NCBI GenBank assembly: GCA_002256025.1
Contig: NKIB01013149.1
Coordinates: 1-63,596 of the forward strand
DNA length: 63,596 nt
DNA from: Asterionella formosa
Lineage: Eukaryota
Direction: 5' to 3'
Shown here: piece by piece, positions 7,897 through 62,107 of the stretch
How positions within the stretch are numbered: the first letter of the stretch is position 1
How the letters are laid out: each line of letters begins with the position of its first letter
The notes under the pieces: generated by a model
What the model saw: the letters and a program-made list of their open reading frames with translations, nothing else
The model's database searches: none
What the model was told of the DNA's origin: nothing
Translations under genes and position numbers: made by a program

Positions 7897-10800
7897 CCTG
7901 CTTTGTTTATGCAGTCCCTTGGGTTCCAGGAAGGTCTGGTAGCGCATGTAATATGCACACATTTCAGTTTCGTTGCACTCCCAATGGATTGTCTCATGCC
8001 TGCCAGACCAGATAGGCAAGCTTTCGATAAAAAATCCTTAAGTACTTTAGGAAAATGTACTCTTATTGACCGATGACTATTTGCAGAATCAGTCTCTGAA
8101 CACGACTCAGATTTCCTGACTGATAAATGGTCTCAGCAAACCGTCTACCGGTACGACTAGAAGTTATTGATTGGTGAATTCCATTAGCAAACCGTCATCC
8201 AGTTTCTGAGTAGTAGTAGGTGAGCACAATTTCGATGATAAGAGCACGACTTAGATTTAATGGATGATAATTTAACATTGACGAAAGTTACTTAAGAGAT
8301 TGTGGAATGAATAGCCAGTCTATCTCGTCCGACAGGCATGAGACGATCTATTGGGAGTGCGTCGAAACTGAAAGAGGCCCTCTTAGGGGGGGGGGGGGCC
8401 AAGTCAAGTGCGACTTCACAACCTCCAAAACTGTCAAGTTCCTTAGCAATATCGTACTATTACTTAATAGTTTTTTATACTGGTATAACACAACATAGTA
8501 CAGTTTAGTTGTCATGAGCGGCTGGAGGATGCTGCATCATGATGTCGTCTCAGCAGAGCATTGATAATGACAAAAATGACAAATTTTTCAATGAAAATGC
8601 TAACGACGCTTGGCTATTAGGGACATATATTAAGCACAATATAGACAATACAATCGAAAAAGAATTATTCTTGTAAAAACACTAATTTTGACAACGAAAA
8701 TTGAAATAGCCGATGGCGCATTTTTCATGTGATTTATTGATTCACAGTTCTAAACGACAATGTTATGAACATGATTGACGCTTCACGGTAGCTGTACAGC
8801 GACTATAAAGACAACAAAACAATAAAATGAATAATTAAAGCAAAAGATGTGAAACAAGTTATTTATTCGCTTTTATTTGATTGCTTGTATTGCTTGACGC
8901 CACAAAGAGGATGCATAGTCACATGGTAATGATGGAAGCATGACAGTGATAAAATTCCAAAATGTTTTTTTGAATAATGGAACCATGATGGTAATAACAA
9001 TTCAAAATTATTTGTTTTATTACCAGCTTTCCCAGTATACTAGCTATTATCTTCATTAGTCAACCGTCAATATATACATAACAGTTGTATGTTCTGTACC
9101 TGTATAAATTATTTTACAGTAGGTTCATTTGTACCATCATGCCAATCACTCCATTTGTCACGAGTGTTTATCACGGAATTTGCATCGTGATTATATATCC
9201 AAGAAGTGTCATATGGATGGTTGTTGGCGTATCTCAAAAAATGCACTTAGTAGCTAGACCTGCCTTGCATCCAACTTCTTAATTCCAATTTGTGTGTTAC
9301 CCAACCAACTTCCCCAAATTGTCTGTAAAGTCTGTATGGTATCCTACAACTATGATGATTTATTAATATTTTACCGACCTGGAAGTACAATGATAATAAG
9401 AACATTATCATCACACAATGTATATCAACTGATCAACAACATTACTCATCAACATCATAAACCTTCTCATTTTTATTATTTTCCATTCTCAAGATTGCCC
9501 GATGTAAATTATTACTACAACGCATCCTAAAATCAGCTCAACTCTATGCTGTCATTTAAATTGTTTCATCGTAAATCTATCGTAAACATGATCATAATTC
9601 TAATCACAAGCATTGTTCAAAATAGATTGAAATGGATTGTAATTTAACAATCAAAATTTAGCAATGCTATCTATTATTCTACAAGCCAGCGACCCAACGT
9701 TTCTCTCTCTACTCAGCTCAATGTATATTGTTCCTGTCTCGAAATTTCTTCCTCTTTTTCTGAATCTTGTGCCAAGCAATGCCTTACTAATGTTGCGTAT
9801 CTCTCCCTGCTGTTAATTTCATTCTGAACTCGCCGACTATTCCGTTGTTTGATCGGTTTTATTGTCCTATGCAGTTACAATAACAATGAGAAAGAATGAC
9901 TTGTTAGCTAGACATGATACACTGACACAACATCACGCCATTCCATCGTATCCTCTTGCTTCCTTCACTTGCCACAGCCAAATCAAAGCAAGTGATGCAT
10001 AAGTCTGTAATAGTAAATTGTCAGTAAATTCTTGAATAAGTAAGCAAGTTTCAGGTTTCCAATGTTGCCAAATAAAACTTACCGATTCATTTTCGTTAGC
10101 TTAACTTTGAGAGAAGGTAAAGTGGCGTGTCCGTCAGTTATGGTCCATCAGAAGTGAATAAGTCAAACTACAAGAGCACTTACCAATTTTGTTTTGTTTT
10201 ACATTGGTGCTCCCCAACAAGCGAAACGAGCTGTTGATTCAACTGAGAAAAAAGGAAATGTGCGTTTACAATTTGTTGTTGTCCTGCCTCCCAATGATTG
10301 TCATCCAAGTACCACATTGATGGCTTCATTACCTTAAACATACTCCATCCTTCGAAGGTGCAATGTGTCGAAGCCACAATTGTTTTCGTTATTGCGTAAA
10401 CTTGTTTTCCTTTCTTGTCATGTGCTTTACTAGCTACGACATTTCTTTTCATGAAGCAGGCATTGTTTGTTAACATGACAGAACGATTTCAAATATATTT
10501 GCCATGTAAATACCTAGTTATAAAATTTGTAAATATATAAATATATCAAGTGTCGTAACTTTATAAAAATCAAAGGCACTCTCAATATGGAACATCTTGT
10601 ATTGTTGAGATGATCATATTCGCATATAGATAATTCGAAAATATTCAATGCACAATATGTCCATTGTTTTCCACGACTTCATGTATCAGTACTGTTTTTT
10701 TGAAATTTGTTTGCATCAACATTTTCTACGTCCGTTGGAACTAATTATTTAGACCATTCAATTGGTGTACTAAGTCATAACCCATTTGCTTGTATCATTA

Positions 10801-57069: not shown

Positions 57070-58554
57070 ATGGTACCTGAAGGACTTGCCGAAGAGCAAC
57101 TGCCAGATTCAGCGGATGCTTTCCCGTCTGACAACGAAGCAGACGGAGCATTGTTTCCTCCTTTGGAATCAGCTACGATTGAGGAACGAGAGGGAACAAT
57201 ATCATCAGCTCGTTTCAATATTTTGTCAACCATGGTTGGTGGAGGATCATTGTCCCTACCCTTTGCATTCCAAAAGGCCGGCAATGCCTTGTTAGGGCCG
57301 TTATTGATCATCATTGTTGCAAGTTTTTCTGATTTTTGTTTCAGACTGCTGATCGCGTCTGCTGGTGAGCCCACTGCTCGGAAGGGAACTGCGTCATTCG
57401 AGTCAATTTCCAAGGCTGCATTTGGTCCGAAGGCGTATATATTTTCCATGGGATTAGTCTTCTCCATGTGCGTAATTGGTGCTATCGGGTACGCTGTCCT
57501 TCTGAGAGACATGTTGATCCCGATAGCTGATGCACTTGCGCCAAATGACTCTCAACTGTATCACAATGGTGCCATGTTGACAATTGTACTGTTAGTGACT
57601 CCTTTGACCTCCCTTCAAACGTTGACGTCGCTCAAGCGCTTCGGGGCTGCATCCATGTTTTCGGTGTTTGCCCTCGGATGTTGCGTCATTTACCGCTCTG
57701 TCCAATGTAATTTTGGAGATCGCGAGGATCGACATGCGCAATGGTTTAGATATTTGCGACTCTTTCCAGAATCTCCCAAGGACTTGATAGACGCGTTGCC
57801 ACTCTTTATTTCTTGTTTTGTATGCCACTACAACATATGTACGGTTCACAATGAATTGCGGGACCCGACTCCAGCACGGTCATCGTGGTGGATTCGATCC
57901 ACTACGTGGTCTGCAGCCATTTTTTACCTAGCCATGGGTTTCGCAGGAAGCATGTATGGCAATTGCACCCCATCAGGACTTGTACAAGGAAATGTTCTTC
58001 TGGACTTTGCAGAAGACGACCCTCTGCTGTTGATGGGTAGAATCTGCCTGGCGCTAACCATTTCTCTAGCATTCCCTATGCTAGTGATTCCCGCCCGAGA
58101 TATTGTCTTGAGGGTCATGGCAACAAAGGATTCCGACGATGATAGTGGAGAATCGATATTGGAAGAAGGAGAAATATTGGAGCGCGATCTCCGTGAACCG
58201 TTGTTGGGTGAAGCAGAGGAGGGACCCAAGGACCTATCTGTGTCGTTTATTCGGCGCTTAGCCGTGGCAATTGTTGTGTTTTGGTCGGCTGCTGGCATTG
58301 CGTGTTGTGTCTCCAGTATTGACATTGTTTGGGATCTTCTGGGAAGCAGCTTGTCTATTCTACTATCCTATTTGATACCTTGCTGTTCGTATCTTGTCCT
58401 CATGGACCAGCAGGAAGATTTCGACGAGGAAGCAGGAACCAATTGGAGAAAGCGACTTTCAACTATTTTATGTTGGTTTTTACTGATACTTTTTTGCCCT
58501 CTGATGGTTATTTCGACCGCCAATGCCATCTACAACACCATCCATTCTCATTGA
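57070..58554 (+). CDS. Amino acid transporter (Aa_trans; SLC38/AVT-like)
   Basis: GTISSARFNILSTMVGGGSLSLPFAF, SFESISKAAFG, FVCHYN..VHNEL, and many hydrophobic helices. Confidence 0.9.
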   Translation: MVPEGLAEEQLPDSADAFPSDNEADGALFPPLESATIEEREGTISSARFNILSTMVGGGSLSLPFAFQKAGNALLGPLLIIIVASFSDFCFRLLIASAGEPTARKGTASFESISKAAFGPKAYIFSMGLVFSMCVIGAIGYAVLLRDMLIPIADALAPNDSQLYHNGAMLTIVLLVTPLTSLQTLTSLKRFGAASMFSVFALGCCVIYRSVQCNFGDREDRHAQWFRYLRLFPESPKDLIDALPLFISCFVCHYNICTVHNELRDPTPARSSWWIRSTTWSAAIFYLAMGFAGSMYGNCTPSGLVQGNVLLDFAEDDPLLLMGRICLALTISLAFPMLVIPARDIVLRVMATKDSDDDSGESILEEGEILERDLREPLLGEAEEGPKDLSVSFIRRLAVAIVVFWSAAGIACCVSSIDIVWDLLGSSLSILLSYLIPCCSYLVLMDQQEDFDEEAGTNWRKRLSTILCWFLLILFCPLMVISTANAIYNTIHSH

Positions 58555-58683: not shown

Positions 58684-59544
58684 TTATGCCCTCGAGAAGA
58701 CGAAGAAATTGTCATCTTCATCGCGAGTGATCCGAATGCCCTCGTCGACATAAAACGTCTTGAGAGGGACCACTGGGACACTGCCAAATGCGCTATAAAT
58801 GTCACCAACAGGCACCTCAAATTTCATGTCATCCAAAAATTGGTTGAGGAGAGGAACATTGGATCCCTTTATTTGTGTTGTGGTGATTTGAAGCTCCCAT
58901 GTTTCAGGCGAGACGACCTTCAGCGATGCCGATGATATAACCGTTCCCTTGACTCGAAATGGAAATCCTGGTAAAATTCCAACCTCTACATCTACTTCAC
59001 TTACAAGTTGTTTGGTAGACACAGTCTGTCGGATGCGTCCGACTCTTGACGCAGTCGTCGCTGCGTCATGAATATCAAACCCATTTTGAGCGATCTCTTT
59101 GTTGGAGTCACCCAGAGCGGCTCGGATCGACAAGAAGAAGGGACTGGACCGAAAGAACTGAGTCGAAGACAGCACCAAGTCCCATTCGCCATTGGAAGCC
59201 GACGCTGGATCCGACGTGGGATTCAGTGCTTCAAGCTGCGTTACCAAATCAATGACGATATCCCGTTCTTCTGAAGTGGCATATTCGCCGCGGTTGGTAA
59301 CAGAGGCCAACAGAAGAAGCTCTCGTTTCAGCGCATCCCGAATGAAGGCATCGTCCGCGTCGGTATCCACTGTGACCGATTTTTCACTACTTGTCAGGTC
59401 GAAAGAATCGTAATCCGAGGGAGCTTCGCTCATCTTCGGAGCTTCTACATAGCTTCTGTGGAAACTCAGAGGAACGAACGCCTGAGCAGAGGTTGCTACG
59501 AATGCGAGGAAAAGAACGGAGCGGATTGCTGTTGTCCTTTGCAT
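58684..59544 (-). CDS. Plastid lipid-associated protein (PAP/fibrillin family)
   Basis: Signal peptide ending SAQA-FVP (plastid motif); [33 protein letters not shown]-terminal [20 protein letters not shown]. Confidence 0.88.
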
Positions 59545-59907
59545 GATTTTGTTAGGCTCGTTGGAGCCTGATCTGTCATGCATCATGGTCGCTCGCTCAC
59601 TTGGTTGTATGTAGAGGTGAACAAATTATTATTTCACTGATGTCCTGGTATCATGACACGCACCATGCATCATCACGTGGTACCAGGTACCAGGTACCTG
59701 GTAACCAGTTACTGTTCAGGTACTCCCGTTTATTCATTTTACCCGGAAGTAACGCACATGCACATGCACAGCACACGAACACGTCATTCGACTAAGGTTG
59801 CAAAAGCCAGCATGATAGTTTCCTCGAGTCCTAATAACCAAGAAAACGGCAATCCATTGGTCATAACATTGCATTTCTGAGTTCCTCGGGTGACTGGAAT
59901 ATTCAAG

Positions 59908-60669
59908 ATGAAAGTGGTGACGATGGGTTTGGTGACACTTTCAGTGTCAACACGAGCTTTTCGCATTCAATCGCATCATTTACCTTCAACTCGGAGTTGC
60001 AAAGCTAAACTATTCCAGAGTCTGAATGTAGAAGAAGCTGCTGCTTCCGAGAAGGAATCCTCTAATTTTGAAAATGATGGAATTTTCAGAGGTATGGCTC
60101 CCTTCTTAAAACTTGGTGGCATTTCTACTGGGAAAAAGATCATCTATGGTGTTTTAACCGCCGACGTCGACAAACAATTGACGAGGGAGGAGATGAGAAA
60201 GCAAGAGCGCGAGGCATCGGAGAAAATGGTGAATATAGGGGACCAAGAGCGGGCTCGAAGAGACAAAATTGGAACCATCATATTAGCACTTTCTGGGATA
60301 TATGCACTTTGGGCAGCTCTTGTTGCTGATGATGGTGGCCTTTATGGACATTTTATTCGATTCATGGTGCTCCCTTCATTTGGACTAGGATATGGTTACA
60401 AACTCAGCGCGCAGACCGGGTTATGAAACATTGCCCAGGCTGGGCTCTTGGACTTTGATGAAGGCTTATTTGAAATTGAAGACCAGAGCCTGGCTAATGC
60501 ATTGTTGGACAGGGTAAACGAGTTTAATAGCTCTACTGGACTAAAAGCATTTGCGGTGGCTGCCATATTTGGGTCATTGCCACAGGCAATATCCTCTCCA
60601 CTCGCATTTTATGGAGCCCTGTGTGCGACGCTTTACTTTGCCGAGGGAAAATTACCTAGAGGAGTATAG
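59908..60669 (+). CDS. Candidate selenoprotein (membrane selenoprotein-like), 253 aa, in-frame TGA at 60424-60426 read as Sec173; probably plastid-targeted
   Basis: ORFs 59890-60426 and 60448-60669 are one frame separated only by TGA (..SAQTGL-U-NIAQAGLLDFDEG..), with 80 open codons after it. Leader MKVVTMGLVTLSVSTRA-F, VNIGDQERARR followed by two hydrophobic helices, and a SECIS-like hairpin downstream. Confidence 0.8.
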
Positions 60670-60693
60670 TAGCAGACCGACTATGTTTGACAA

Positions 60694-60749
60694 GCTTAGA
60701 ATGACGGTCCAACCAGTTGGTAAGTGCTGACGATGGACTTGAGAAAGGT
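60694..60749 (+). promoter_or_regulatory. Candidate eukaryotic SECIS element
   Basis: ATGAC (60701-05) and TGAG (60740-43) form the kink-turn quartet, closed by GGTCCA/TGGACT. Further CAGT/GCTG pairing, an apical loop containing AA, and a weak lower helix GCTT/AGGT. The core starts 31 nt after the TAG stop. Confidence 0.65.
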
Positions 60750-61290
60750 ATCCAAACATATTCATACAATAAGAATTAGTCAATATTTATGTATACTAGT
60801 AACTCACTCATCCCATCATGACGATTTCTACCCTCTTCTTATGCGGTCCCAGTTCTTCTTGAATTGTAATAGTAATGGGGGTCTGTACATTATATGTCAG
60901 TAAAAAACTGCATTGACCCACAAACAGTATTAAAAACACAGATGTGTTGTGTTGGTCAAAAAAGCAAAAATATTTTAGCCACCACATCGACCAAGACCAA
61001 ATATGCTTTGGTCTTGTATGAGGATGACCCCTTATTGACCAAATATGAAGCATTTGGTCAATTAGACTCCAACTGTAGCCAAATAAAAGAAGCATTTCTA
61101 TTGGTTTAGATTGTGGCTTGCACCGGCAACCTAACGTTTATGGTTTAATGAGTGCATACATAGTTGCAATACATTTTCGGTACAATCTTCTTCATGTAGA
61201 CTCATACAACCATCAGTGTGTGTGCGCGCGCATTCAGTGTCGACTCATAAATATATGCATAATTTATTCAACATTGTCACCTTTATCAGT

Positions 61291-62107
61291 ATGGGTTCAG
61301 GTGTTACGTGGGAGAAAGAAGAGGATGAGGCGCTTGCTCGGTCCTGGGTTGCAGCCAGTGAAGACTCAATCACTGGGACTGGTCAGAAAGCAAGCAAGTT
61401 TTGGGGCCAGGTGTTTGAGATCTATGTACTAGGTCTCATCCCAGATGGCAAGGAGCGGACATCAACAGCATGCCGGGTTCGATGGGGAATGATAAATCAA
61501 GACGTCACAAAGTTCTGTGGCCTTTTTGCACAGTTGACAAGTGTTCCAAAATCGGGATGGACGGAAGATTAATACATTGAAGAAGCTATGGAGCTGTTTA
61601 AATTTGAAGGAAAGCAAAGGGAAAAGGCTAGGCAAAGAATTTATTTTCGAAGGGTGTTGGCATATTTTAAAGGAAGCCCCTGAGTGGAAGGGTGGTTGCA
61701 GTTACGTTTGGGATCATTCAAAATTAAAACTCGATGATTTGAAGTATGAGTTGCGTCCCATGGGGGCAAAAGCCGCCAAGAATGAAAAGCATGTTGCAAA
61801 TGCTCAGCTTGTCATTTAACAGAAGCATGTTATGATGCTTGAAAGAAAGGTGAAAACTCAACATGATGAGTTTCTATTCAAGATATTTTCAATGAATTGT
61901 GAATCAGCAGAAGAAAAAAGGTGGTTTGCCATGAAGACACAAGAAGCAATAGAGTATGTAGATGCTGTGATTGGGAAACCGGCAACCAAAAAGGCCAAAA
62001 CAGATACTACATTGCAGTTTAGCAGTTCTGCTGAGGAATTAGATGTTTCAATTTCTCCATCAGCATCTAGTACTGATGATGATGAATCGGTTCTAACTAG
62101 AAACTGA
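61291..62107 (+). pseudogene. PIF/Harbinger Myb/SANT-like (NAM-associated) accessory protein, disrupted
   Basis: WEKEEDEALARSWVAASEDSITGTGQKASKFW, RTSTACRVRWGMINQDVTKFCG, SGWTED, FIFEGCWHILKEAPEW and RPMGAKAAK. Premature stops and frameshift. Confidence 0.85.

Follow-up and report, generated by a model that had tools for sequence, protein, structure and literature searches.

SELENOK and SELENOS are short, membrane-anchored selenoproteins that carry a single selenocysteine (Sec, U) and no CxxU pair, and they are made on ER-bound ribosomes. The protein considered here would share these features, being short, presumably membrane-anchored and furnished with one Sec and no CxxU pair. Unlike it, SELENOK and SELENOS hold their Sec a few residues from the C-terminus, within a disordered tail. 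Pfam returned no match for the protein considered here, and no sequence similarity to SELENOK or SELENOS was detected.

Two further families were described by Lobanov et al. (2007, Genome Biol 8:R198). MSP is reported there from Ostreococcus, Chlamydomonas, Volvox and Dictyostelium and, like the protein considered here, is a small selenoprotein found in unicellular eukaryotes, with a predicted membrane location and no known function. The second family, 'hypothetical protein 3', appears in Table 2 of that paper for two Ostreococcus species only and not for the diatom T. pseudonana, and the supplement keeps the two families separate. A full-text literature search on the Ostreococcus hypothetical protein 3 selenoprotein returned the 2007 paper only, and PMC6627142 has nothing on the family. 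Jiang et al. 2020 (PMC7539508) credit diatoms with 20-44 selenoprotein genes, among which diatom members of the family may already be catalogued under 'Hypo'.

Here we describe a gene in a 63,596-nucleotide stretch of Asterionella formosa DNA (contig NKIB01013149.1; the whole stretch is called the window below) that standard annotation would split at an in-frame TGA. On comparative grounds, we are highly confident that this gene encodes a selenoprotein. We are nearly as confident in the whole explanation, namely that it is an intronless, expressed nuclear selenoprotein gene with a SECIS-like element in its 3'UTR and a plastid-type leader.

Gene structure and transcripts

Under translation table 11, the TGA at 60424-60426 closes an ORF begun at the ATG at 59908, with 172 codons before the stop. 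Beyond it, the frame continues for another 80 codons (60427-60666), up to a TAG at 60667-60669 that is abutted by a second TAG at 60670-60672, and the read-through product is 253 residues long, U being residue 173 (Table 1). No other in-frame TGA occurs in the gene. An initial sequence-only reading of the window had proposed this split and continuation, and all of its coordinates proved correct. Because the TGA very likely encodes Sec, the protein would have 253, not 172, residues.

Table 1. Features of the selenoprotein gene, with positions on the window
Feature	Position	Strand	Basis or remark
5' UTR	59769..59907	+	Extent is the reach of RNA contigs; start of X9 contig
Full predicted selenoprotein CDS	59908..60669	+	253 codons, Sec as codon 173, plus TAG; homologue alignments and AlphaFold model
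Predicted ER-type signal peptide, residues 1-17	59908..59958	+	Putative cleavage Ala17/Phe18 (..STRA/F..)
Transit-peptide-like region, residues 18 to ~50	59959..60057	+	Little conserved, predicted disordered; putative targeting role
In-frame TGA, very likely Sec codon (U173)	60424..60426	+	Related loci, Cys forms, RNA contigs
C-terminal 80 codons lost in standard annotation	60427..60666	+	Translation, alignments, AlphaFold model
Tandem TAG TAG stop	60667..60672	+	Close relative P0051 stops at the equivalent alignment position
SECIS-like element, 3'UTR	60689..60756	+	Own scanner, homologue-derived covariance models and fold
Remaining 3'UTR	60757..60808	+	RNA contig ends at 60790 (X9) and 60808 (X16); approximate transcript end

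The gene is expressed, and its transcripts are unspliced where they can be followed. A contig of 1022 nt from a poly(A) RNA library (X9) is collinear with 59769-60790, and RNA contigs of four runs from four studies span the TGA with zero differences there and no joint inside the gene. The sequence-only reading had held that no intron was needed, and these contigs bear this out, since the TGA is retained and never spliced out. The ends of RNA contigs give rough transcript ends only, and a gap in contig cover lies at 60824-60874. The lone upstream ATG in the 5' UTR, at 59812, is GTG in the X9 contig (A>G at full depth).

These data also bear on the idea that the TGA arose by nonsense mutation or faulty assembly, or marks a pseudogene, a reading that has nothing specific in its favour beyond being the default interpretation of a split ORF. 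The TGA is present in contigs of all four RNA runs, among them a strain that differs from the window at 14 other positions, and independent DNA runs contain 0.8-1.0 of the words sampled from the stretch. Given that the same codon also recurs at nearly all related loci (see below), we consider an error or mutation scarcely credible, and the reading of this codon as Sec is retained in what follows.

A member of the hypothetical protein 3 family

By its sequence, the window protein is a member of the hypothetical protein 3 family of Ostreococcus. It aligns by BLASTP with the product of an Ostreococcus-like locus (P0181) at 35% identity over 154 amino acids (E 3e-22), with U aligned to U, and P0181 itself differs by few residues from the O. 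lucimarinus hypothetical protein 3 as published by Lobanov et al. (2007). The O. tauri and O. lucimarinus proteins carry their single Sec in the same context, G-L-U-N-I-A-Q-A-G, share with the window protein an NI...ER.RR motif before the first hydrophobic helix, and are encoded by genes in which, as in the window gene, a SECIS-like element lies no further than ~150 nt from the stop. The window protein begins with a predicted signal peptide followed by Ala/Phe, whereas the Ostreococcus form has an Arg/Ala/Pro/Thr-rich N-terminus; the window protein and other stramenopile-like members possess an extra C-terminal helix of ~28 residues (226-253) that is absent in Ostreococcus forms; and the SECIS core reads ATGA in the window but GTGA in Ostreococcus-like loci.

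The sequence-only reading had suggested a resemblance to MSP and to bacterial Cys or Sec homologues of that family; the resemblance to MSP did not hold up. The Sec of MSP lies near the N-terminus in the unrelated context ...SLVG(S/A)UCWP..., and the Dictyostelium protein has two Sec residues, according to the 2007 report. The motif SLVG(S/A)UCWP is absent from the window translation, where Sec is residue 173 in G-L-U-N-I-A-Q, and the pattern that had been attributed to MSP is actually that of hypothetical protein 3. A limited search of prokaryote genomes with a single peptide pattern found no bacterial homologues. It gave a lone 10-residue match, in a Gemmatimonadales MAG, which we take to be a chance match. 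The family has been on record as a selenoprotein family since 2007, so the gene is nothing new in kind.

Codon 173 among relatives

All four non-self matches among close relatives (59-62% identity) terminate at the same ...GYGYKLSAQTGL, and conservation climbs toward that stop. An exhaustive search gave 238 representatives at E<=1e-3 (50% clustering). Among the 150 of these that were listed, at least 105 stop exactly at the site, as expected from the earlier suggestion that standard annotation truncates the gene, while 19 carry C and 9 carry W. The Cys in the C forms is known from protein sequences, only one of which (P0147) has a standard-code public annotation.

A first scan of metagenome loci with patterns from close relatives found no relative. 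Loci were then found with a C-terminal-only pattern from which the Sec column was excluded, and TGA lies directly before the motif N-I/V-A-Q-x-G-x-W-D-V-D in 79 of these 80 related loci. The loci with TGA represent 49 distinct sequences in 25 clusters at 70% identity, with TGA in all of them.

The sequence beyond the TGA is also conserved. A 73-residue ORF called separately in a close relative (P0051) matches the 80 downstream residues at 45 of 73 positions (E 1e-33) and ends at the same place. The 80 residues also align with full-length relatives over the C-terminal half of the latter, in which the consensus NIAQAGLWDVDGxGLxKIED..KVN..N is conserved. This amino-acid conservation spans Ostreococcus-like to stramenopile-like sequences, and there is no conserved start codon after the TGA. 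The sequence-only reading had predicted that homologues would show either TGA or Cys at residue 173 and be conserved to either side of it, and had named a lack of conservation after the TGA as grounds for abandoning the idea; the homologues show the predicted pattern.

The nine representatives written with W might suggest that UGA is generally read as Trp or Cys through a variant nuclear code, with no selenocysteine involved. However, W forms and site-truncated forms coexist in three 90% clusters. For example, P0168 (224 amino acids) equals P0167 (163 amino acids) at every residue through 163 and then continues with W onward; P0019 and P0164, as well as P0013 and P0162, show the same pairing, and the DNA of a locus that matches the W form P0013 (L001) has TGA at the site. 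We infer, where it cannot be seen directly, that the nine W forms are TGA codons read as W, so the occurrence of Trp in homologues, which would have counted against Sec, is apparent only. In addition, the Pfam match of the neighbouring Aa_trans gene reaches residue 487 of 494, with a TGA as the stop, and four of the ten window ORFs of at least 250 amino acids end in TGA. Because TGA is an ordinary stop in the adjacent Aa_trans gene, there is no codon reassignment. This, together with the presence of only one in-frame TGA in the selenoprotein gene, leaves a variant code with a negligible probability, and we regard TGA 60424-60426 as very likely to be a selenocysteine codon on the strength of these comparisons.

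The read-through protein

An AlphaFold model of the 253-residue protein has a mean pLDDT of 85.6, with blocks exceeding 90 between residues 61 and 250. Values are 93-98 over residues 171-250, and the parts before and after Sec co-fold. Long helices are modelled at residues 112-140, 145-170, 193-223 and 226-245, and the C-terminal 80 residues begin with a short helix and a beta-hairpin, followed by a long helix and, at the end, a hydrophobic one. The earlier proposal of membrane helices is partly upheld: the long helices appear in the model, but hydropathy supports one segment only, as residues 120-143 alone pass a Kyte-Doolittle 19-residue mean of 1.4.

No fold or domain relative emerged from the searches we conducted. 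Pfam and NCBIfam gave nothing meaningful on the read-through protein, and Pfam gave only sub-threshold DUF matches on 10 relatives. Foldseek against the PDB had no match at E<=0.001, a wide VIA-align search reached generic helical bundles at best (Z 5.7), and a PDB sequence-profile search had nothing at E<0.6.

The SECIS-like element and the case for a true stop

A SECIS is expected to have an AUGA/GA kink-turn core, a helix II and apical A residues. The sequence-only reading had noted a SECIS-like hairpin after the TAG, and the core and helices are present. The core is formed by ATGA at 60701-60704 and GA at 60741-60742. Helix II pairs 60706-60711 with 60734-60739, and an upper helix pairs 60716-60721 with 60726-60731 beneath an apical loop, AAGU (60722-60725). 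The spacing from AUGA to the apical AA is 17 nt, which exceeds the 10-13 nt expected from the classical SECISearch pattern.

Covariance models built from homologue 3'UTRs scored the window element at 13.1, 14.9 and 18.5 bits in successive rounds. The last of these models (R3) was made from 11 homologue elements with the window element held out, and its best held-out match is 60689-60756, at 18.5 bits and with an E-value of 0.14 over 2 x 136.6 kb. By our own arithmetic, this E-value becomes roughly 1e-4 for one strand of a 140-nt UTR, with the caution that such E-values are rough. All 12 matches of the preceding model (R2) at E<=10 fall in family 3'UTRs, and a core GAAUGACGG...UGAG is common to the window and its relatives.

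Rfam SECIS models have no match at E<=10 in 59500-62000 or in the 166-nt UTR 60665-60830 alone, and Rfam reports no SECIS across the whole window at the gathering score. The Rfam model SECIS_1 matched only one of 20 homologue loci (L018, at 25.2 bits against a gathering score of 35), so we consider Rfam to be insensitive for this lineage. Our own ungapped scanner gave [AG]TGA-type candidates in 25 of 43 homologue loci, which had been picked by eye from 80 with near-duplicates dropped. Its background rate in the window, 0.11 per 140 nt for an ATGAN core whose helix has 7 bp or more, is too high for the scanner result to stand alone. Neither the 3'UTR (z 0.23) nor the SECIS stretch (z -0.06) folds better than its shuffled counterparts. 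RNAalifold predicted zero pairs on a MAFFT alignment of the SECIS candidates because that alignment is not structural, and the iterative covariance models were used instead. A tRNA search of the window found none.

It is also appropriate to question whether TGA 60424 is simply a true stop that yields a functional 172-residue product, with the downstream frame either untranslated or made as a separate product. The table 11 reading gives an ORF of exactly this length, most database entries of the family are of that length, and Rfam offers no SECIS match. Furthermore, strain-level substitutions downstream are not clearly constrained: 7 changes (3 synonymous, 4 not) fall in the 240 nt after the TGA versus 4 in the 454 nt before it, and these counts are too small to show selection. 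Set against this are the 19 of 150 listed representatives in which Cys occupies the site and the frame continues, the conservation of downstream residues from Ostreococcus-like to stramenopile-like sequences with no conserved start after the TGA, the co-folding of the two parts at pLDDT above 90, the conservation of the stop 80 codons further on, and the presence of a family-specific SECIS-like element. A true stop is therefore very improbable. We favour instead a model in which the UGA would be decoded as Sec, directed by the SECIS-like stem-loop at 60689-60756, and translation would terminate at the tandem TAG.

The N-terminal leader and the likely destination

The sequence-only reading had proposed a plastid-type leader, and the N-terminus does resemble the bipartite leaders of proteins bound for complex plastids. 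Residues 1-50 have pLDDT mostly below 50, and conservation of the leader after residue 18 is low in both close-relative and family alignments. A17 and F18 are invariant in 5 close sequences, and [AGS]-F occurs just after the hydrophobic N-terminal core in 83 of the 95 family members that have such a core. The green-algal members have Arg/Ala/Pro/Thr-rich N-termini, which we take to resemble chloroplast transit peptides. Phe as the first residue after the signal peptide is the hallmark of the ASAFAP plastid motif (PMC4329603). An ASAFAP-type presequence has Phe or another aromatic residue at this first transit-peptide position, and ...STRA/F in the window protein agrees with it at the level of the motif.

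The divergent neighbour of the gene, a PAP_fibrillin gene, carries the same kind of leader.

From these sequence features, we judge that the protein is probably located in the plastid. One alternative is a selenoprotein that resides elsewhere, in the ER or secretory path, in the periplastidal compartment or in the outer plastid membranes. The direct evidence on destination consists only of a hydrophobic N-terminus and Ala/Phe, and small ER-membrane selenoproteins do exist. However, the recurrence of Phe after the predicted signal peptide across the family, where it agrees with the published hallmark (PMC4329603), and the transit-like N-termini of green-algal members both argue for the plastid, with the leader of the PAP_fibrillin neighbour as a circumstantial addition. 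We therefore regard a non-plastid location as unlikely, though far less so than a true stop.

Plastid import of a selenoprotein had initially been called unusual, which overstates the matter. It is established both that selenoproteins can be synthesised on ER-bound ribosomes and that organelles can import them.

Possible function and significance

We envision that this freshwater, complex-plastid alga uses the gene to produce a 253-residue selenoprotein whose bipartite leader, a signal peptide followed by a Phe-initial transit-like stretch, would route it to the inside of the plastid by way of the ER. The mature protein, of about residues 55-253 and near 22 kDa, would be small, helical and membrane-associated, with its single Sec in an invariant G-L-U-N-I-A-Q placed right after the second hydrophobic helix. 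The protein may act as a redox enzyme at the membrane surface that uses a selenol as its reactive group, with Cys in place of Sec in some lineages, although we propose this catalytic role only tentatively.

More broadly, the family could represent a dedicated plastid-membrane selenoenzyme that has a fold unseen among solved structures, that extends from prasinophytes to diatoms and other complex-plastid algae, that mostly employs Sec, and that has been invisible to annotation because gene callers stop at UGA. We rate this combined proposal somewhat short of an even chance. Most family database entries are 5' fragments of ~170 residues, and the conserved C-terminal third and the Sec are consequently missing from proteomes, from Pfam and from plastid-proteome predictions. 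The family is widespread and predominantly of the Sec form, its leaders point to the plastid in green and complex-plastid algae alike, and it has no recognisable fold relative. We believe that a putative membrane protein of the plastid that depends on selenium, in phytoplankton abundant in both fresh water and the sea, is worth following up. If these predictions are correct, major phytoplankton groups would need some of their selenium inside the plastid, at a membrane surface, and the family would offer a way into an as yet undescribed plastid redox reaction.

A profile search for named relatives yielded 10 proteins, none informatively named, and the nearest Atlas clusters (143-175 amino acids) have scores of 0.85-0.86, which fall below the 0.9 level and make them leads only. 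Cluster look-ups of the family gave one named organism, Ostreobium quekettii.

A transcribed, intron-free gene with an in-frame TGA codon

The gene at 59908-60669 is a genuine selenoprotein gene, with selenocysteine (Sec) insertion inferred at its in-frame TGA codon, and the core claim of a sequence-only reading that preceded this analysis was right. Translation confirmed the coordinates and the 80-codon in-frame extension past TGA 60424-60426 that had been proposed; when the TGA is translated as U, the resulting protein is 253 residues long and carries the U as residue 173.

Features of the selenoprotein gene and its neighbourhood
Feature	Position	Strand	Basis
Aa_trans ORF, intron-free, 494 aa, ends in TGA	57070-58554	+	Pfam E 7e-45
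PAP_fibrillin gene, divergent neighbour about 320 bp upstream	58684-59586	-	Pfam E 9.5e-15
172-codon ORF	ATG 59908 to TGA 60424-60426	+	standard stops
Post-TGA open frame, 80 further codons	60427-60666	+	same frame
Two neighbouring TAG codons closing the frame	60667-60672	+	
SECIS-like helix II (predicted)	60706-60711 / 60734-60739	+	fold
SECIS-like upper helix (predicted), beyond internal loop	60716-60721 / 60726-60731	+	fold

Four public RNA runs from four different studies were compared with 59600-61100. A 1022-nt contig from a poly(A)-selected library (run X9) is collinear with 59769-60790, an 868-nt contig from run X16 crosses 59941-60808 with zero differences, and run X20 yields two short contigs, one of which spans 60193-60436. 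The 764-nt contig from run X18 crosses 59970-60733 with 14 differences, and thus we consider this run to represent another strain. Codon 60424-60426 is unchanged in all four runs and there are no joints inside the gene; an intron, editing and an assembly error at the TGA are therefore all absent, the first in line with the earlier remark that no intron is needed. A transcript of about 1 kb fits these data, with the contig ends as its approximate ends, and depth is zero at 60824-60874 in all four runs. The single upstream ATG of the 5'UTR, at 59812, would open a 22-codon uORF. This uORF is not a fixed feature of the population, since the X9 poly(A) RNA contig carries an A-to-G change at full depth that converts the ATG to GTG.

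Conservation of the TGA codon among relatives

All four close relatives other than the protein itself (59-62% identity) stop at the same ...GYGYKLSAQTGL, and conservation among them climbs toward this shared end, unlike the behaviour of real C-termini. An exhaustive search gave 238 relatives at E<=1e-3, and the 150 listed ones were sorted by regular expression. Exactly at the Sec site, 105 of the 150 stop, which bears out the view that ordinary annotation shortens this hidden selenoprotein. The frame continues through Cys in 19 and through Trp in nine, and 17 fall outside these classes. Inspection by eye shows that four of the 17 carry a variant motif and likewise stop at the site, and that three are C-terminal-only fragments (P0051, P0142 and P0145). 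One full-length relative, P0018, has Ser, neither Sec nor Cys, at the aligned site (...DGSSNRAQSGLWDVD...), and would be either a diverged inactive form or else a sequence error.

Trp in homologues, which the sequence-only reading had itself set against its claim, was checked. The Trp-bearing P0168 (224 aa) is identical to P0167 (163 aa, stopping at the site) at every residue up to position 163, and the two share one 90% cluster; the same pairing of Trp and stop forms is found in P0019/P0164 and P0013/P0162, and the metagenome locus whose DNA matches P0013 (L001) has TGA at the site. Given these pairs and this DNA, the Trp forms are TGA codons translated as Trp by some gene callers, and the selenoprotein claim stands.

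Metagenome contigs were searched with a pattern based solely on residues that follow the Sec column, so that the codon at that column was unselected. The search confirmed 121 stretches, and among the 80 loci retained, many of which are near-duplicates, the codon preceding N-I/V-A-Q is TGA in 79; in the lone exception (L024) the match begins only at residue 9 and the upstream part is not collinear. Once near-duplicates are collapsed, 49 distinct 61-residue windows are left, which form 41 clusters at the 90% level and 25 clusters at 70%, with TGA in all, and TGA is also present in L068, a locus missed by the collapsing regular expression. This agrees with the expectation that homologues would carry TGA or Cys at residue 173, and the DNA-level evidence added here indicates near-universal use of the Sec codon across the family.

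Conservation after the TGA, likewise expected, is present family-wide (consensus NIAQAGLWDVDGxGLxKIEDxxLAxxxLxKVNxxN), and the C-terminal part of the window's protein agrees at 45 of 73 residues with a 73-aa ORF that was called separately in a close relative and has the same final residue. The X18 strain differs from the window by four changes in the 454 nt that precede the TGA (two synonymous, E>D and R>K), by seven in the 240 nt after it (three synonymous, four nonsynonymous) and by three in 64 nt of UTR, a divergence so shallow that these changes do not demonstrate selective constraint on the C-terminal part. As we read the alignments, the argument for this part is carried by the deep comparisons and not by the strain changes.

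A general reassignment of TGA would also leave the frame open. The neighbouring amino-acid transporter gene was used to check that TGA normally ends translation in this genome: its Pfam Aa_trans match reaches residue 487 of 494, and its stop is TGA. Among the window's 10 ORFs that reach 250 aa or more, four stop at TGA. Because TGA acts as a stop elsewhere in the window, general reassignment is absent.

A family-specific SECIS-like element

The proposal of a SECIS element after the TAG stands in part: the site is matched by a model built from the family's own elements, whereas Rfam provides no match and the spacing is longer than the classical one. The Rfam SECIS models gave zero matches, including with the 166-nt UTR alone at E<=10, but this negative is weak because they detect only one of 20 homologue loci, all with the conserved TGA. 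Between 60600 and 61000, a simple scanner (NTGAN, an ungapped helix, then NGAN) yielded a single candidate that combines ATGAC (60701-60705) with TGAG (60740-60743), which alone proves little since comparable ATGAN candidates occur at 0.11 per 140 nt in the window.

Among homologues, the scanner found [AG]TGA-type candidates in 25 of 43 loci, 23-270 nt past the stop. Many share a 5' core GAAUGACGG and a 3' UGAG, and the window's 5' core is the same GAAUGACGG as in loci L010 and L015. GTGA, not ATGA, forms the 5' core in the GC-rich loci L029, L035, L042, L047, L050, L057 and L059, several of which are Ostreococcus- or Mamiellales-like; this fits the conserved G that Lobanov et al. 2007 (PMC2375036) remark on at one position of the SECIS elements of O. 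tauri.

Three successive covariance models were built from homologue elements only (R1 from two sequences, with its structure set by hand, R2 from five and R3 from 11), and these score the window's site at 13.1, 14.9 and 18.5 bits, respectively. All 12 R2 matches at E<=10 in 154 kb are sense-strand 3'UTRs of family genes. With R3, the site at 60689-60756 ranks first among sequences outside the building set (E 0.14, 2 x 136.6 kb), and the sole other match in the window, at 8569-8604, scores 13.3 bits and is mostly deletions. By our own arithmetic from the tool's rough E-values, the chance expectation is about 1e-4 per single-strand 140-nt UTR. This family-specific SECIS model is new here.

The predicted apical loop is AAGU, and AUGA lies 17 nt from the apical AA. 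Classical SECIS search patterns place 10-13 nt between the two, and therefore we name the element SECIS-like, with a family-typical core and non-canonical spacing. The UTR strain differences (60671, 60679 and 60697) all precede the ATGA core and none falls in 60700-60733, although these numbers are too small to weigh. A 20-nt direct repeat with 85% identity, between 59912-59931 at the CDS start and 60722-60741 in the upper part of the SECIS-like element, is probably due to chance.

Relation to known algal selenoproteins

The gene is a new, probably diatom-lineage member of an uncharacterised selenoprotein family known since 2007. Its earlier assignment to the MSP family was wrong. In their supplement, Lobanov et al. 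2007 (PMC2375036) give separate entries for the Ostreococcus selenoprotein MSP and for each of three Ostreococcus selenoproteins named 'hypothetical proteins'; the Sec context of MSP, near its N-terminus, is ...SLVG(S/A)UCWP..., and that of 'hypothetical protein 3' from O. tauri and O. lucimarinus is ...GFVGSAK(S/T)GLUNIAQAGVWDV(E/D)G.... Table 2 of that paper gives hypothetical protein 3 only for the two Ostreococcus species, and not for Thalassiosira pseudonana. The MSP motif as printed there differs from that of the window's protein, which aligns to hypothetical protein 3: the product of locus L059 is nearly identical to the published O. lucimarinus protein, and the window's protein aligns with the L059 product over 154 residues at 35% identity (E 3e-22), U on U. 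Compared with the Ostreococcus protein, the window's protein adds a C-terminal helix ending ...LY....K(I/L)P..., which is also found in other stramenopile-like members.

Jiang et al. 2020 (PMC7539508) describe an algal 'Hypo' family that is 80% Sec-containing, and diatoms with 20-44 selenoprotein genes. Pfam has no family covering the window's protein or 10 relatives. Bacterial homologues had also been anticipated and did not materialize, as a scan of prokaryote genomes with a single peptide pattern gave nothing beyond one 10-residue match in a Gemmatimonadales MAG, taken as chance. One Cys-bearing relative is an 'unnamed protein product' of the green alga Ostreobium quekettii, and the Atlas clusters nearest to the family carry Bacillariophyta and Chlorophyta labels, with scores (0.85-0.86) that make them leads only. 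The source of the window is probably a diatom or some other ochrophyte.

Plastid-type leaders

The N-terminus of the window's protein reads MKVVTMGLVTLSVSTRA|FRIQS..., and four close relatives read ...STNA|F..., with A17 and F18 invariant. Among 126 representatives with an initial M and 70 or more residues ahead of the NI...ER motif, a hydrophobic N-terminal core is present in 95, and 83 of these have [AGS]-F 6-20 residues past the core start, for which we estimate a chance rate of about 1 in 8 from rough amino-acid frequencies. Several contain a literal ..SAFAP... The 'ASAFAP' motif, which is named in PMC4329603, marks the bipartite presequences of proteins bound for red-algal-derived plastids. 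The leader of the PAP_fibrillin neighbour reads ...TSAQA|FVP..., which is complex-plastid-like, and both adjacent genes may be plastid-targeted. Ostreococcus-like forms begin with an Arg/Ala/Pro/Thr-rich stretch that resembles a chloroplast transit peptide. The leader motif counts, the N-termini of the green forms and the PAP_fibrillin neighbour, taken together, make plastid import, as predicted from motifs, the best reading for the window's protein, and the plastid-type leader proposed earlier is retained. Putative plastid-type leaders across the family are newly described here.

Predicted structure and possible function

AlphaFold2 with the family alignment gave a mean pLDDT of 85.6 and a pTM of 0.75. 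The pLDDT is below 50 for most of residues 1-50, with block means of 84 at residues 51-60 and 91-98 at 61-250, covering all of the protein after U173. In the model, the mature part begins at about residue 55, with a helix and a beta-hairpin that form a small unit. Next comes a long helix, which bears the invariant E114 and R117 and continues into hydrophobic segment 120-143, a second helix terminates in S167...G171-L-U173, and a short helix, a beta-hairpin and two last helices follow U173. Of the membrane helices originally proposed, 120-143 holds up as the single strongly hydrophobic segment, whereas the second helix is less hydrophobic. Foldseek against the PDB gave zero matches at E<=0.001, a PDB profile search gave no match, and a wide structural search reached at best Z 5.7, to generic helical bundles; the confident predicted model appears to be without a known structural relative. 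The family alignment has no conserved second Cys. A lone Sec that most lineages keep, and for which only Cys can substitute, suggests a nucleophilic or redox role, and we tentatively consider such a role at the membrane surface to be possible.

Repeat-like sequences around the gene

Directly downstream of the selenoprotein gene, 60906-61100 has very high RNA word depth (up to 333 in X9 and up to 831 in X18) and is matched by many contigs at 85-95% likeness, with both flanks running into unrelated sequence. This region looks like a dispersed transcribed repeat and includes a 14-nt inverted repeat (61031-61065). Several X18 contigs link about 59698-59708 to 60898, bypassing the whole gene, and their shorter side matches by only 20-23 letters (59666-59720, 60898-60952); a GGTACC-rich tract at 59718 carries a 6-nt GGTACC insertion in one contig. 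These joins and the insertion are probably repeat or low-complexity artefacts that stem from other loci or organisms.
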